Made by a program: the position numbers and the translations under genes. From Candidatus Thorarchaeota archaeon (GTDB lineage: Archaea; Asgardarchaeota; Thorarchaeia; Thorarchaeales; Thorarchaeaceae): a stretch of DNA of 64,000 bases. Location: NCBI GenBank assembly GCA_048884965.1, contig JBHLQH010000018.1, forward strand, positions 1 through 64,000, written 5' to 3'. The notes beneath the pieces are model-generated. The model was not told where the DNA came from. It saw only the letters and a list, made by a program, of their open reading frames with translations, and searched no databases. Below are positions 58,569 to 64,000 of the stretch, one piece after another. Every line of letters begins with the position of its first letter. The stretch's first letter is position 1.

Positions 58569-60224
58569 TTAATCCTCGGCTACGAAGGGAGTAGTGATGC
58601 TCTCTTCCTCGACTGCAGTGGGCTTGTGTTTGCCTCGCCATGCATCGATTGGTTGAGAGAACTTATCCTCTACACGAGACCTGTGTATCGTATTCATCGT
58701 GCAGAAGGGTATGATCCTTCCGTCAGGTACAGCATAGTTCACATCACAGTGTTGTACTCGCTCAAGGTCGAAGTTGTATGGATCTTGAAAGTGCATCATA
58801 CCAAGCATGATTATCCTTCTCATAAACTTCGCAAGTGAGTCATAGTCACCACGATCTAAGAAAGCACTTAGCAGATCCTTGAGGATACCTTTCTTTTTGA
58901 TGTGACGTGCACCTGCAGCCAATTTTAGTTTGGCACGCTTGGTAGCAGCACGACTTTCATCAGCTATGAGATTCGCAATCTCTTCAAGAAGCTCTAGGAA
59001 AGCATCAACATTGATGAGCTCTGTAATCGGTCTGTAGGTACCATCTTCCTCGATGTAAAGGAATGTTGACATACCACATGCGAAGTGTGAGCTTAGCTCC
59101 AACTCGGGGCCTCCTTTCATAAGACCGAGCGCTCGGCCGACAGGCATCATCGCTGGCACAGGGTACCAGGCATCCCTGGGGATAATACCATTCGTCTGTT
59201 CCTCGATGAGTTTGATAGCGTCAGGTATCGTGATTCTCATCTGTTTTCGTTCAGAGTGATCGATACGACCTGTGATGCTAACTGGCTGGAAGTTGATACA
59301 TCGGATGACATCGTGGTTCTTTACTGCGAACTCAATGATACCACCAAGCTGATCATGGTTGACACCTCTGACAACAGTTGGAACAAGTACGATTGACTCC
59401 ATACCAACCTCACGAGCATTCTGCAAAGCCTGCTTCTTGATGGGCAACAGGTTACTACCCCTTGCTTCAATGTAAGGCTCTGGTGTAATACCATCGAATT
59501 GCATATAGATGGTTGAGAGACCAGCGTCCCTTAGCTCTTGAAGGTACTCCTTACTCTTTCCGATTCTGATTCCGTTGCTAGCAATCTGTACATGTCTGAA
59601 CCCAAGCTCTTTTGCCCAGCGGATGTACTTTGGTAAGTTCTTACTCACAGTAGGCTCACCGCCAGCGAATTGCAAAGCTGGAGCAGGAACGGGCTTATTC
59701 CCTCTGAGATTCTTCATCATATCAAGGACTTCGTCCTCAGTAGGCTCATAGACAGATCCGCCTTCTGCGGCAACTGCGAAGCAAATCGGACATCGCAAGT
59801 TGCATCGGTTTGTCACATCAAGTAAGGCGAGAGCGGTATGGGATTTATGATCGGGGCATTGACCACAATCCTCTGGACAACCCTTTACCGTTTCTGTGCG
59901 GGGATTATCAAGGCCAACAGATTTGTACCACCAGTTCTGAGCCTTTCTGAACATTTCTGCATCGCCCCAGTAGATATCGACATATTCACCATGCTTCTCG
60001 CAGGTCTTCTTGTACATAACCCTGCCATCTTCCTCATATAGAGTGGCATCAATTACATTGACTTTATCTTCACCCATAAGGCACTCAGGACAAATTGATT
60101 GAGTGGTGTAGGGTAGTTCTCGTACGGGATACTTCTCAACATGATACCGTGAGAGTGGACCTCCATCCTCATGCTTGACGGGTACCTCAGGTATCGGCTT
60201 TACTTTATCGGTCGCCATTATCAT
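58569..60224 (-). CDS. tes: Tetraether lipid synthase (GDGT-MAS), radical SAM
   Basis: SICPEC...CEKHG, GCPEDCGQCPDH, CNLRCPICFA, HFACG, FQDPYNFD.ER...C...DGRIIPFC. Confidence 0.88.
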   Translation of the reverse strand: MIMATDKVKPIPEVPVKHEDGGPLSRYHVEKYPVRELPYTTQSICPECLMGEDKVNVIDATLYEEDGRVMYKKTCEKHGEYVDIYWGDAEMFRKAQNWWYKSVGLDNPRTETVKGCPEDCGQCPDHKSHTALALLDVTNRCNLRCPICFAVAAEGGSVYEPTEDEVLDMMKNLRGNKPVPAPALQFAGGEPTVSKNLPKYIRWAKELGFRHVQIASNGIRIGKSKEYLQELRDAGLSTIYMQFDGITPEPYIEARGSNLLPIKKQALQNAREVGMESIVLVPTVVRGVNHDQLGGIIEFAVKNHDVIRCINFQPVSITGRIDHSERKQMRITIPDAIKLIEEQTNGIIPRDAWYPVPAMMPVGRALGLMKGGPELELSSHFACGMSTFLYIEEDGTYRPITELINVDAFLELLEEIANLIADESRAATKRAKLKLAAGARHIKKKGILKDLLSAFLDRGDYDSLAKFMRRIIMLGMMHFQDPYNFDLERVQHCDVNYAVPDGRIIPFCTMNTIHRSRVEDKFSQPIDAWRGKHKPTAVEEESITTPFVAED

Positions 60225-60666: not shown

Positions 60667-61338
60667 TTAGGTTATTGCAAGTGCAACCTCAATCTGCTCT
60701 TTAGCAACAGTGATGAATTGGCGAATGGCTTCCTGCAAGTCCTCAGGAATGCTCACGGTCCAAGGATCTGGAGAGTCGCGACTCACGGAATCAGTCATCG
60801 AATCGAATGGAAGATACTTGGTATTCAAATCCCTATCAAAGGAAATAGAACCAATCCACTGTCCGTTCTTCACAATCTCATATATGGGTCGTAAGGCACT
60901 CATCTCATTCGGCCCAATTGCAGACCAAAAGAAGGACATACCATTGAATTGTCCAGGATTCCCTAGCCCAATAACATAGCTGTCCATAGTAGCTTTGGCT
61001 GTAACCAAATCATAAAGGATGCCAATGCGACAGTTAAGACATTGATTGAACTCAAGTCCATCGCCACTTGGTTTCACATAGCCAATGCCATTCTTCTCAA
61101 TGTTATCATCATTACAGTGCACACACAGATTCATACCCCATCGAACTTCTATATGGTCAGCAAAGGGACCTTCCAAGAATCGGTTCTCGGCATCTGCAAA
61201 TGCTGTCTTTACTGCGTCCATGCCCTCAGAATCCATCTTCTTTCGAATAACTCGGAATATTTCCAGAAGGTCCTGCCACATTACATTGTAAATTACATCA
61301 GCCAGATTATCCAAGGATCTATCTTCCAAAGAACTCAT
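60667..61338 (-). CDS. Hypothetical protein with two CxxC motifs
   Basis: CVHC and CLNC; GGTGA SD. Confidence 0.6.
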   Translation of the reverse strand: MSSLEDRSLDNLADVIYNVMWQDLLEIFRVIRKKMDSEGMDAVKTAFADAENRFLEGPFADHIEVRWGMNLCVHCNDDNIEKNGIGYVKPSGDGLEFNQCLNCRIGILYDLVTAKATMDSYVIGLGNPGQFNGMSFFWSAIGPNEMSALRPIYEIVKNGQWIGSISFDRDLNTKYLPFDSMTDSVSRDSPDPWTVSIPEDLQEAIRQFITVAKEQIEVALAIT

Positions 61339-61478
61339 GTTGAATCACCACGGTTGCTGCAGTTTCTATCCCAATAGATTAGAAATCAAGTGCCAATTAA
61401 GTGTTGGTTGCACCTACATCAATACACAAAATGGTCAAGGACATTTAGCCTAAGGTTTTTAACGGAGCTGACTACGAT

Positions 61479-61638
61479 GTGAGAGTAGTATTATAGGTGA
61501 GAAAGGATGGATTGCCAAATCATCTAGCAACAATGGTCATGGATCCAGTCCATTCTCTAATTACCTCTCACCTGAAAGTCTGAGCGATTGCTCTCTGCTT
61601 TATTACGATACAGAACTACTCCATGAGAGGATGCCATA
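61479..61638 (+). promoter_or_regulatory. Structured ileS leader (candidate attenuator)
   Basis: Nested stems 61483-89/61615-21, 61495-502/61566-73 and 61504-14/61546-56; CCTCTCA (61564-70) is also complementary to TGAGAGG (61624-30) before ileS; TATA-like TTTTTAA at 61456-62. Confidence 0.55.
61507..61527 (+). CDS. Candidate ileS leader peptide MDCQII
   Basis: AGGTGA SD, 6-nt spacer, then ATG GAT TGC CAA ATC ATC TAG. Confidence 0.45.
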   Translation: MDCQII

Positions 61639-64000
61639 ATGAGTCCATTAGCGAAGAGATATGATCCAGACCCAGTAGAGAAAGCTGTACTGAAATTCTG
61701 GGAAGAACATGACACCTACAACAAGACAGTCGATTTTAGAAGCAAAGGTCCACGCTGGAATTTCCTAGAAGGACCTCCAACCACAAACGGGTTCATGCAT
61801 GTTGGTCATGCAAGAGGTCGAGCAATGAAGGATGCCCAGATCCGATATATGACCATGAAGGGATATAATGTCTGGAGACGAGGCGGTTGGGATACACAGG
61901 GCCTTCCTGTGGAGCTAGAAGTTGAGAGGAACGAAGGACTTGCAGAAAAGGGGGAAATCGAATCCTCGATAGGTTTGGAAGGCTTTGTTCAGAAATGCAA
62001 GGATTTGGTGGACTTCTATCTGGATAGATGGGTGAGTGATTCTGTTAGGCTTGGGCTTTGGCTTGACTATCCTGAGGCATATCAGACTAGACGAGATGAC
62101 TACATAGAGCATGTATGGTATTTTCTAAAGACAGCAAGCGAGAGAGGTCTCTTAGGCAGAGGTTATCGCGTGAATCCAACTTGTCCCAGATGTGTTACAG
62201 CTCTGTCTGGACATGAGGTATCTCAAGGCTATATGACAAAGGATGATCCCTCAATATATGTTAAGTTCAAACTCGAAGGAAAGGAGAACGAGTATCTAGT
62301 CATATGGACAACGACACCCTTCACCCTCATATCAAACGAAATGGTCTCGGTTCATCCAAAGTACAAGTATGTCAAGGTAAAGGTTGGCAAGGAACTCTGG
62401 TGGATTGTTGAAGATCTTGTAGAGACAGTGATGCAGAAAGCAGGAGTGTCCAAATATGAGCAGGTAGAATCCTTGACTGGAAAGAAGATGCTAGGGTGGA
62501 AGTATGTGCATCCATTCCGAGAGGAGGTGCCATTCCATCAAGAGCATACGGAGAAGTATATGCATGCAGTCGTTACTGGAAAACATGTCACCATAGAGGA
62601 TGGCACAGGACTAGTCCATACTGCACCAGGATTTGGACCAGATGACTTCAGTGTTGGAAAAGAGTATGATGTGCCTGTTTTCGCGCCTGTAACTACCAAT
62701 GGTAAGTTCACTGATGAAGTACCAATGTTCAAGGGAAAATTCGTGTTTGATACTAATGCAATAGTTCCAGAGATGCTTGAAAAGAAAGGACTTCTAGTCA
62801 AGGAGGAAACAATAACTCACGAATATCCACATTGCTGGCGTTGCGATACTCCTCTCGTCTATCTAGCAGATAACACGCAGTGGTTCCTAAAAATGGAAGG
62901 CGTTCGCGATAGACTAGTTACTGAGAATAATAGAGTGAATTGGACACCAGATTGGGCAGGAAGTGGAAGATTTGGTGATTGGGTCGCCAATGCAGATGAT
63001 TGGTGTATCTCAAGATCACGAATATGGGGATCTCCATTGCCGGTCTGGGTTTGCGACGAGTGTCAACATGAGATTGTCATAGGCTCTAGGGACGAGCTAA
63101 AGAAGATGGCAAAGAAGTTTCCAGACGATTTCGAGATGCATAGACCTTGGGTCGATAAAGTGGAAGTCGCATGTCCCAAGTGCAAAGGAAACATGACTCG
63201 AGAACCATTTGTGATAGATTGTTGGTTGGATTCGGGTCTAGCACATAGTGCAAGTGTCGATTTCCTCAGACAGCCAGCCCTATTCAAGGAGCTGTTTCCA
63301 TATGATTTCATCACGGAAGCAGTAGATCAATCTAGAGGATGGTTCTATAGCTTGCTCTATACTTCTGTTGTCCTTCATAACAGCGTAGCGTTCAATGCAT
63401 GCGTGAGCCAAGAGCATGTTCTTGATGCGGACGGCGGCAAAATGAGCAAGTCGAGAGGAAATGTCGTGTGGGCAAAGGATGCCATGGAAGAGATAGGAGC
63501 AGATCCATTCAGACTCTTTGTCCTTACCAAGAATGCTTCATGGACGAGAACGAACTATGCTCCTAAGGAGATAGATCTAGTACGCAAGAAACTGGACATC
63601 CTGTGGAACGTGGCACTATTCGCTGAAACCTACATGGAGCTCGATGGCTTCTCCTATGATGAGAAGAGACTTCAGAAGGGTCTGAAAAAGGCGTCATTGG
63701 AAGACAAGTGGCTTCTATCAAGAGTCCAGAGTGTCCTGAAGGAATTCCACGACAACATGGACAAGTATCTTTGGCATCATTCTGGAAGAGCGTTATTGGA
63801 ATTCATATCAGAAGATCTCAGCAGAATCTACCTTCCTCTTGTAAAGAAGAGGGTGTGGTTGGATGCTGAAGATCCCCAGAAGATAATGGCATATGACGTG
63901 ATGTACTATACCATGCAGACAATGATACGAGCGTTGAACATATTCACTCCATTTCTGGGAGAGCATCTGCATCGAAACTTCCTGACTCGATTTGGGAAGC
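61639..64000 (+). CDS. ileS: Isoleucyl-tRNA synthetase, 3' end outside window
   Basis: Own translation: EGPPTTNG.MHVGH, GWDTQGLPVE, WTTTP, GTGLVH.APGFG, YPHCWRC, DWCISRSR.WG, EAVDQSRGWF, KMSKS. Confidence 0.93.
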   Translation, partial: MSPLAKRYDPDPVEKAVLKFWEEHDTYNKTVDFRSKGPRWNFLEGPPTTNGFMHVGHARGRAMKDAQIRYMTMKGYNVWRRGGWDTQGLPVELEVERNEGLAEKGEIESSIGLEGFVQKCKDLVDFYLDRWVSDSVRLGLWLDYPEAYQTRRDDYIEHVWYFLKTASERGLLGRGYRVNPTCPRCVTALSGHEVSQGYMTKDDPSIYVKFKLEGKENEYLVIWTTTPFTLISNEMVSVHPKYKYVKVKVGKELWWIVEDLVETVMQKAGVSKYEQVESLTGKKMLGWKYVHPFREEVPFHQEHTEKYMHAVVTGKHVTIEDGTGLVHTAPGFGPDDFSVGKEYDVPVFAPVTTNGKFTDEVPMFKGKFVFDTNAIVPEMLEKKGLLVKEETITHEYPHCWRCDTPLVYLADNTQWFLKMEGVRDRLVTENNRVNWTPDWAGSGRFGDWVANADDWCISRSRIWGSPLPVWVCDECQHEIVIGSRDELKKMAKKFPDDFEMHRPWVDKVEVACPKCKGNMTREPFVIDCWLDSGLAHSASVDFLRQPALFKELFPYDFITEAVDQSRGWFYSLLYTSVVLHNSVAFNACVSQEHVLDADGGKMSKSRGNVVWAKDAMEEIGADPFRLFVLTKNASWTRTNYAPKEIDLVRKKLDILWNVALFAETYMELDGFSYDEKRLQKGLKKASLEDKWLLSRVQSVLKEFHDNMDKYLWHHSGRALLEFISEDLSRIYLPLVKKRVWLDAEDPQKIMAYDVMYYTMQTMIRALNIFTPFLGEHLHRNFLTRFGK

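Follow-up and report, generated by a model that had tools for sequence, protein, structure and literature searches.

A candidate +1 frameshift sensor of isoleucyl-tRNA supply in the ileS leader of Thorarchaeota

The stretch of DNA analysed here (the window) comprises 64,000 nucleotides (nt) of a Candidatus Thorarchaeota archaeon (GenBank assembly GCA_048884965.1, contig JBHLQH010000018.1, positions 1 to 64,000, forward strand) and ends inside ileS, the gene for isoleucine--tRNA ligase (isoleucyl-tRNA synthetase, IleRS). The subject of this work is the leader of this gene, which carries a short upstream open reading frame (uORF). Comparison with the leaders of relatives establishes the uORF, an invariant isoleucine codon within it, a slip-prone context at this codon, an open and Ile-poor +1 frame, the overlap of the stop of this frame with the ileS start, and a leucine version of the same design upstream of leuS. 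The leader is probably a hungry-codon sensor, in which a +1 frameshift would carry ribosomes to the ileS start when Ile-tRNA is scarce. This reading is built on the following elements.

61495-61500, plus strand: Shine-Dalgarno (SD) sequence of the uORF, AGGTGA; AGGTGA or AGGAGA is kept 5-8 nt upstream of the uORF ATG despite small spacer indels
61507-61527, plus strand: uORF MDCQII-stop in frame 0 (ATG at 61507, stop TAG); family consensus M-D-x-Q/E-I-x-stop
61516-61521, plus strand: proposed shift site, with CAA in the P site (61516-18) and AUC as the hungry Ile codon after it (61519-21); a +1 slip would re-pair the tRNA on AAA
61520-61639, plus strand: +1 frame; its 39 sense codons (SSSNNGHG...HERMP) include neither Ile nor a canonical start, and TAA (61637-39) closes it
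61625-61630, plus strand: SD sequence of ileS (GAGAGG); relatives keep GAGG(A/T)G between -8 and -13 relative to the start
61637-61642, plus strand: TAATGA, in which the +1-frame stops TAA (61637-39) and TGA (61640-42) overlap the ileS ATG (61639-41)
61639-63999, plus strand: ileS, continuing past the window end (TIGR00392, 797 bits, cut-off 621; Pfam tRNA-synt_1 and Anticodon_1)

The sensor could operate as follows. The ileS mRNA would begin about 20 nt upstream of the SD-led six-codon uORF. With ample Ile-tRNA(Ile), codon 5 would be read, termination would follow two codons later, and the ribosome would depart from the leader some 110 nt short of ileS. When Ile-tRNA(Ile) runs short, as it also would with insufficient IleRS activity, the AUC in the A site would stay empty, the P-site tRNA would slip by +1 from CAA onto AAA, and the +1 frame would be read. 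Since this frame is stop-free and almost Ile-free, it should be readable during Ile shortage. The shifted ribosome would then stop at TAATGA, atop the ileS start codon. Ribosomes delivered in this way could raise ileS expression via termination-reinitiation, via translation of the leader behind RNA polymerase, or via both. Translation behind the polymerase may prevent premature loss of the transcript, and a site of such loss might be indicated by the T-rich patch at 61594-61606. The outcome would be a homeostatic loop, as in the control of prfB by release factor 2 (RF2). That frameshifting occurs, that it responds to tRNA charging and that it raises ileS expression is what we infer from the conserved features described below.

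Conservation of the uORF and of the frame behind it

The 5' regions of ileS were collected from relatives, and minus-strand loci were re-oriented. The 16-mer GGATGGATWGYCAAAT (at most one mismatch) matches 77 of the 86 genomes of the Thorarchaeota family, mostly with one copy each, and its exact copy is unique within the window's own genome. Pattern matches were fetched and four false hits were dropped, which left 74 distinct leaders. The leader precedes two IleRS types, about 40% identical to each other: type A (MSPLAKRYDP..., the type of the window) follows 46 leaders and type B (MFKPV...) follows 26, giving the set of 72 leaders used in the comparisons by type.

The SD sequence with the M-D-x-Q/E-I-x-stop pattern occurs once per genome, always upstream of ileS, in about 75 of the 86 family genomes. 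SD sequence and uORF are present in every family genome with an assembled and readable ileS 5' region. All 15 family-level orthologues share the SD sequence (AGGTGA/AGGAGA), a spacer of 5-8 nt, ATG GAT TGY CAA ATY and a variable tail. Three genomes missed by the 16-mer pattern and reached via ileS carry MDHEI... or MDHQII-stop, with CAA or GAA followed by ATT or ATC. An earlier sequence-only reading of the window had proposed the uORF, and its conservation among relatives confirms that it is real. The letters described in that reading are all present in the DNA: the SD sequence and the uORF, both hairpin pairings, GTGAGAG at 61479-85, TGAGAGG at 61624-30 and ATGCCATAATG at the ileS start.

The uORF stop changes identity between leaders (TAG 47, TAA 20, TGA 7) and stands at codon 7 in 59 of 72 leaders; the uORF has six codons in 34/46 type A and 25/26 type B leaders. 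Two genomes in which the ATG has become ACG possess an in-frame TTG 9 nt upstream with proper SD spacing (MERTDCQIN-stop). The stop swaps, the rescue of the lost ATG by TTG and the peptide consensus argue that the conserved unit is an ORF under translation and not just a motif in the nucleotides. At codon 5 every leader has ATC or ATT, so that Ile never varies at this position. Codon 6 encodes I, R, K, N, D, S, H, Q, L, V or T, and a second Ile codon is found in a minority of leaders only. Thus the tandem Ile codons, which the sequence-only reading had taken for the sensor, reduce to the first of the pair, and the enrichment in cognate codons typical of trpL or pheM is lacking, as codon 5 alone is conserved as Ile. 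The sequences point to a translated leader ORF whose cognate Ile codon very probably reports the Ile-tRNA supply. The earlier proposal of an Ile-tRNA charging sensor is upheld in this respect by the invariant codon 5 and by a Leu codon at the same position of the leuS leader; the anti-SD output that had been attached to it was not reproduced in relatives.

The slip-prone context is kept as strictly as the sensor codon. Codon 4 is CAA in 73 leaders and GAA in one, never CAG or GAG, and codon 4 with the next base reads CAA-A or GAA-A in all leaders, which corresponds to the N-XX-X pattern. The genome encodes a tRNA-Gln(UUG) gene.

Conservation of the uORF could also be explained by its peptide. 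In that case M-D-x-Q/E-I would be an arrest or termination-stall peptide sensing free isoleucine or another small molecule, like TnaC, the arginine attenuator peptide or MAGDIS, or the uORF would simply exert constitutive damping. The conserved Asp2, Gln/Glu4 and Ile5, as well as the hexapeptide length in most leaders, are consistent with this explanation. However, residue 3 varies (C, S, R, Y, H), and CAA is the only codon used for Gln and GAT the only one for Asp; the constraint therefore acts on nucleotides and not on the peptide alone. Moreover, the leuS paralogue has Val-Leu at residues 4-5, matching its own enzyme, and the features of the +1 frame would stay unexplained. Control by the peptide is considered quite unlikely.

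In 45/46 type A leaders and 24/26 type B leaders, no stop interrupts the +1 frame up to the last 16 nt before the ileS ATG; dinucleotide-preserving shuffles lead one to expect 11.4 and 1.9 such leaders, respectively. When each genus is represented by a single leader, 14/15 have an open frame and 3.5 are expected (P about 4e-9 with genera taken as independent, which somewhat overstates independence). Frame +2 is open in only 9/46 type A leaders, and frame 0 of the leader contains 1-8 stops. The first +1-frame stop is the TGA of ATGA (at +1) or the TAA at -2 (TAATG) of the ileS start in 43/46 type A leaders, so that the stop-start overlap characteristic of translational coupling (ATGA/TAATG) is present. 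In alignment A1 the TGA within (A/T)TGA at the ileS start is invariant. Codon 2 of ileS always starts with A, and Ser at this position is encoded by AGY in 40/40 cases, never by TCN. The mini-ORF ATG-CCA-TAA, which the sequence-only reading had noted at the ileS start, keeps its stop among relatives and does not keep its ATG.

The distance between the uORF ATG and the ileS ATG is divisible by three in 44/46 type A leaders (123 to 138 nt) and in 21/26 type B leaders. This spacing is exactly what the +1 frame needs in order to end on the (A/T)TGA start. Readthrough of the uORF as a cause of the in-frame spacing was rejected, frame 0 being interrupted by its stops. Scans of the genome for short uORFs whose shifted open frame ends at a long ORF mostly picked up coding regions located upstream and were not informative.

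No ATG, GTG or TTG occurs in the +1 frame of the window, and entry by ordinary initiation is therefore not available there. Nevertheless, the +1 frame could be conceived as an ordinary small gene with a start of its own (the GTG inside the uORF SD sequence or a non-canonical codon), coupled to ileS, with the uORF being incidental. It is true that 14/46 type A and 14/26 type B leaders have the GTG of AGGTGA in register with the +1 frame, and stop-start overlap is typical for coupled genes. Yet the leader of the window and 22/46 type A leaders lack a start codon in the first part of the frame, and the +1 peptide is poorly conserved: mean column identity in the leader alignment is 55%, and the type A +1 peptides differ widely. 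Only openness and the lack of Ile are kept in this frame, and the best-conserved part of the leader is the frame-0 uORF with its own SD sequence, invariant Ile codon and early stop. A small gene is thus a very unlikely explanation.

Cognate-codon depletion and a probable exchange of the synthetase

Ile codons make up 1.9% of the +1 frame in type A leaders and 2.0% in type B leaders, compared with 8.2-9.2% in frames 0 and +2 of the same DNA, the type A leaders having 8.7-8.8% there, and with 7.9% in the long ORFs of the genome. Half of the type A leaders, including that of the window, have no Ile at all in the +1 frame, and the other two frames are free of Ile in only 2 and 1 of 46 leaders.

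A paralogous leader was found upstream of leuS of the same genome (G000:C46; TIGR00395, 992 bits). It reads GTGAGCAAAGG ATG GAT TGC GTT CTC GAT TAA, which encodes MDCVLD-stop.

G000:C46:4894-5008 (L119:295-409), outside the window: leuS leader with the same SD-spacer-ATG-GAT-TGC head as the ileS leader

This leader is kept across the family as MD(C/R)VL followed by 0-4 codons and a stop. Its slip context is GTT-C, and a Leu codon occupies the place of Ile in the ileS leaders. The +1 frame is stop-free up to a TGA 5 nt inside leuS. Leu constitutes 3.8% of this frame versus 18.4% and 14.9% in the other frames, and Ile (11.3%) is not depleted. The sensor codon thus specifies the amino acid of the downstream enzyme, and the shifted frame avoids the same amino acid; such a pattern could be selected only via a translating ribosome.

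We lean towards the wider view that Thorarchaeota synthetase genes are under a modular sensor family, which would combine a shared SD-ATG-GAT-TGC head, a slip codon, one cognate codon, a disposable +1 frame from which both stops and the cognate amino acid have been removed, and ribosome delivery to the synthetase start.

The frame-specific depletion also bears on the possibility that the conserved block is a binding site. One version is an mRNA operator to which IleRS binds through mimicry of tRNA, of which E. coli thrS is an example; others are a tRNA-binding leader of the T-box kind and a transcription-factor site immediately after the promoter. Nucleotide conservation of GGATGGAT..AAAT exceeds the needs of the peptide, and the block directly follows the predicted transcript start, as such a site might do. 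On the other hand, depletion of Ile and of stops in a single frame is visible only to a translating ribosome, and the uORF keeps its function through swaps of stop identity and through replacement of a lost ATG by an in-frame TTG. Rfam cmscan of 61200-61800 (E up to 10) returned no T-box or other family and only chance-level matches (sR24, E 1.2; SBWMV2_UPD-PKk, E 7.8; TUG1_3, E 3.5; SAM_alpha, E 6.5), and ARAGORN detected no tRNA-like gene or fold in 61300-61800. The binding-site explanation is held to be highly improbable.

Retention of the leader upstream of different enzymes gives a further argument for the frameshift sensor. Both IleRS types are found within single genera, the window's own genus being among those with type B, behind the same promoter and uORF. 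Type B leaders possess a relic of the type A ribosome-binding site (RBS) and start (TGAGAGGAAAC..ATGA), followed about 60 nt downstream by a new SD sequence and start (e.g., L110:679-897, L053:1251-1481 and L052:1479-1673). This suggests that ileS was swapped in place with the leader retained. If the leader was kept through the exchange of IleRS types, selection would act on the control element itself.

Type B leaders also contain a covarying long-range helix (GTTCGAT/ATCGAAC, TTAGAT/ATCTAA, CAGAT/ATCTG).

A related arrangement was observed upstream of valS (G000:C62:5327-5468, L120:228-369, outside the window), where an SD-led uORF, MSSPKVPLRIPRYG followed by a stop, contains AAA-GTT. The -1 frame from AAA-GTT is open to a TGA overlapping the valS TTG start (T-TGA), and Val is not clearly depleted. 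This may be a counterpart for Val with a backward slip.

Short ORFs with the same core are present upstream of ileS in other Asgard families: GTG AGG GAT CGC AAA ATC (L018), MRGLEIQR-stop (L026) and ...TERQI-stop (L029). In these three loci a shifted frame stays open until it reaches the ileS start or its vicinity; in L018 the short ORF lies about 120 nt before this start, and the shifted frame of 55 codons ends at GTGA. A crude scan for NAA-ATY uORFs in 12 phylum-level ileS loci detected the layout in three only (L026, L027 and L029), missed at least the GTG-started L018 and was not used as evidence. In L111 (G025:C14, the other family of the class), the last 110 nt before ileS contain no MDxQI uORF; a 26-codon Ile-free ORF (MKKSKGRQKRF...) with its own ATG crosses the ileS start.

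RNA structure, attenuation and points against a frameshift

Three further elements of the leader region have to be considered.

61445-61462, plus strand: promoter box resembling a B recognition element (BRE) and TATA box (TTAGCCTAAGG with TTTTTAA); the block TAGCCTAAGnTTTTTAAC is kept about 45 nt upstream of the uORF ATG in nearly all leaders
61546-61573, plus strand: 3' arm of a hairpin, which pairs with the uORF start (CAGTCCATTCT, 61546-56) and the uORF SD sequence (TCTCACCT, 61566-73) in minimum-energy folds; in-register complementarity is conserved
61582-61606, plus strand: GAGC/GCTC hairpin of small size (61582-93), then a T-rich tract (61594-606); as judged by eye, a T-rich patch and a hairpin whose sequence varies recur about 35-45 nt upstream of ileS in type A leaders

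A transcript start is predicted at about 61482-61487, at a semi-conserved AGAG box. It was placed via the usual archaeal distance from TATA to start and is a prediction, not a mapped 5' end. GTGAGAG (61479-85), put forward in the sequence-only reading as a pairing partner, would lie at or before this start, which speaks against such a role.

The two pairings of the window are AGGTGAGA/TCTCACCT and AGGATGGATTG/CAGTCCATTCT, and GTAGTCCATTCT in the 3' arm is nearly invariant among type B leaders. The fold of 61470-61660 is no more stable than chance (z = -0.97 versus shuffles). Across leaders, the uORF SD sequence and start have a mean unpaired probability of 0.24, compared with 0.37 in shuffled-tail controls, and lie below the control in 91-96% of leaders. 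Both helices are 64.8% paired in register versus 39-45% when slid. There is no compensatory covariation in the two helices beyond shuffled controls, because their 5' side never varies. RNAalifold derived no consensus structure from 44 type A leaders aligned with MAFFT, as their variable part aligns poorly.

These pairings are the basis of the classical alternative, stalling attenuation. A ribosome paused at the Ile codon(s) would free the hairpin 3' arm, which would then pair with the ileS SD sequence or take part in a terminator/antiterminator switch, with no frameshift being involved. Several observations favour it: the 5' arm of a hairpin with conserved in-register complementarity contains the uORF, the uORF RBS is consistently paired, a small hairpin and a T-rich tract precede ileS, and in the window the stalled-ribosome constraint yields CCUCUCA:UGAGAGG pairing. 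This last pairing, however, is a feature of this one sequence. A stalled-ribosome mask over the uORF in 72 leaders shifts the accessibility of the ileS RBS by -0.03 (type A) and +0.007 (type B), with no consistent direction, and the ileS RBS is no more sequestered than in shuffled-leader controls; if anything, it is more open. Accordingly, the toggle of an anti-SD segment between the uORF SD and the ileS SD, envisaged in the sequence-only reading, was not reproduced across relatives. The mutually exclusive conserved helices and the stem covariation expected with it failed to appear as well: no consensus switch was obtained with RNAalifold, and compensatory changes were absent.

In addition, attenuation would have to work with a single conserved Ile codon and leaves the open Ile-poor +1 frame, the multiple-of-three spacing, the invariant ATGA and the choice of CAA over CAG unexplained. 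The T-rich patch could be a terminator or equally a TATA box; type A leaders have no long T run near ileS, and type B leaders have GATTTTTTGAA. Stalling attenuation is regarded as unlikely. The properties of the +1 frame (open, Ile-poor and ending on the ileS start), the spacing rule and the CAA/GAA-A site fit frameshifting with translational coupling better than hairpin attenuation.

Several points weigh against the frameshift sensor. Three type A leaders close the +1 frame earlier, at -25, -14 and -4. Five type B leaders violate the multiple-of-three rule, and two of these have early +1-frame stops. The +1-frame GTG in part of the uORF SD sequences could provide another entrance to the frame. 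Re-pairing from CAA to AAA leaves a first-position mismatch, and no SD-like stimulator stands 3 nt upstream of the shift site, the sole SD sequence (AGGTGA) being 15-18 nt before CAA. Since ileS has its own conserved and unsequestered SD sequence, it is probably translatable without a frameshift, and the gain in ileS output from delivered ribosomes is put forward as a proposal only. The frameshift model assigns no clear role to the conserved hairpin that covers the uORF RBS; this hairpin might confine uORF initiation to a co-transcriptional window. Finally, all sequences are metagenome-assembled genomes from one family, so that counts of relatives overstate independence.

The remaining features of the locus are listed for completeness. 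The divergent intergenic region occupies 61339-61638 (300 bp).

60667-61338, minus strand: neighbour gene of 223 amino acids (aa), assigned to no Pfam or NCBIfam family

This divergent gene adjoins ileS across genera. The box CAATTAAGTGTT at 61384-61395, between the divergent genes, is kept in most relatives and is probably the promoter of the minus-strand gene. Farther away, the minus strand encodes at 58569-60224 a radical SAM protein of 551 aa, whose N-terminus bears an HMPTM-type zinc ribbon (PF04055, PF23545). The first 787 residues of IleRS contain 3.2% Ile versus 7.9% in the long ORFs of the genome, and the enzyme itself should therefore be cheap to produce under Ile scarcity. The 3' end of 16S rRNA, sought for its anti-SD sequence, was not found in this assembly.

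Comparison with known systems of charging control and recoding

The way in which archaea match the levels of aminoacyl-tRNA synthetases to demand is largely unknown. The literature search returned no description of an archaeal synthetase leader of this kind, no paper on a T-box, leader-peptide attenuator or synthetase operator in archaea, and no precedent for a programmed-frameshift sensor of tRNA charging or for ribosome-read amino-acid sensing in archaea. This work contributes the ileS leader of Thorarchaeota, the finding that it is retained with both IleRS types, and the reciprocal test of Ile and Leu depletion.

In E. coli, pheM-pheST, ilvL, leuL and trpL are leader-peptide attenuators of amino-acid and synthetase operons. 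As in the proposed sensor, a short leader ORF with cognate codons lets the ribosome gauge charged tRNA and controls the downstream gene. The attenuators rely on runs of cognate codons and on mutually exclusive terminator/antiterminator hairpins, whereas the ileS leader has one conserved codon, no conserved alternative pairing and an open frame leading to the start codon.

T-box riboswitches control ileS in Firmicutes and Actinobacteria (PMC1262725 for Actinobacteria). There, too, a 5' leader places ileS under control by tRNA(Ile) charging, as is proposed for Thorarchaeota. The T-box differs in binding uncharged tRNA directly, without a ribosome, and the ileS leader carries no T-box signature in Rfam. 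If the proposed sensor is correct, it would represent a third logic of tRNA-charging sensing, beside direct tRNA binding by the T-box and stalling with alternative hairpins in attenuation, with a programmed +1 frameshift at a hungry sense codon as the read-out. It would also mean that recoding serves housekeeping homeostasis in the archaeal lineage closest to eukaryotes, and that a slip codon, a sensor codon, a stop-free and cognate-free frame and an ATGA overlap make up a compact portable element of about 150 nt.

The MAGDIS uORF of AdoMetDC acts by stalling at termination. Antizyme (OAZ) of eukaryotes is produced through a +1 frameshift (PMC5009743). Both resemble the proposed sensor in that metabolite-responsive recoding or a hexapeptide uORF sets the level of an enzyme of the same pathway. 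They differ in sensing polyamines and not tRNA charging; the antizyme shift takes place at a stop codon, and MAGDIS involves no frameshifting.

Hungry-codon +1 frameshifting is known from the amino-acid-starvation frameshifts of Gallant and from CUU-AGG-C of yeast Ty1 (PMC5009743). A slowly decoded sense codon in the A site, with its aminoacyl-tRNA limiting, provokes the +1 slip in these cases, as would occur in the ileS leader. These cases represent translational errors or retrotransposon expression, and not a dedicated sensor for the matching synthetase.

The autoregulatory +1 programmed frameshift of bacterial prfB (RF2), reviewed in PMC5009743, offers a further comparison. The slow codon is a stop in prfB and a sense codon (Ile) in the ileS leader. 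The +1 frame of the ileS leader is disposable and ends on the ileS start; ileS itself stands in frame 0 with its own SD sequence and ATG, no fused product is formed, and the output would be achieved by coupling. In addition, the ileS leader has no SD-like stimulator 3 nt upstream, and its host is archaeal. The two systems share a short frame-0 ORF with an early stop just past the shift site. Their P-site slip codons both follow N-XX-X, as CUU-U in prfB and as CAA-A in the ileS leader. In both, the speed of A-site decoding hinges on the product of the regulated gene, with slow decoding of the ileS leader expected under low charging, and in both the +1 shift would rescue expression and thereby close a homeostatic loop.

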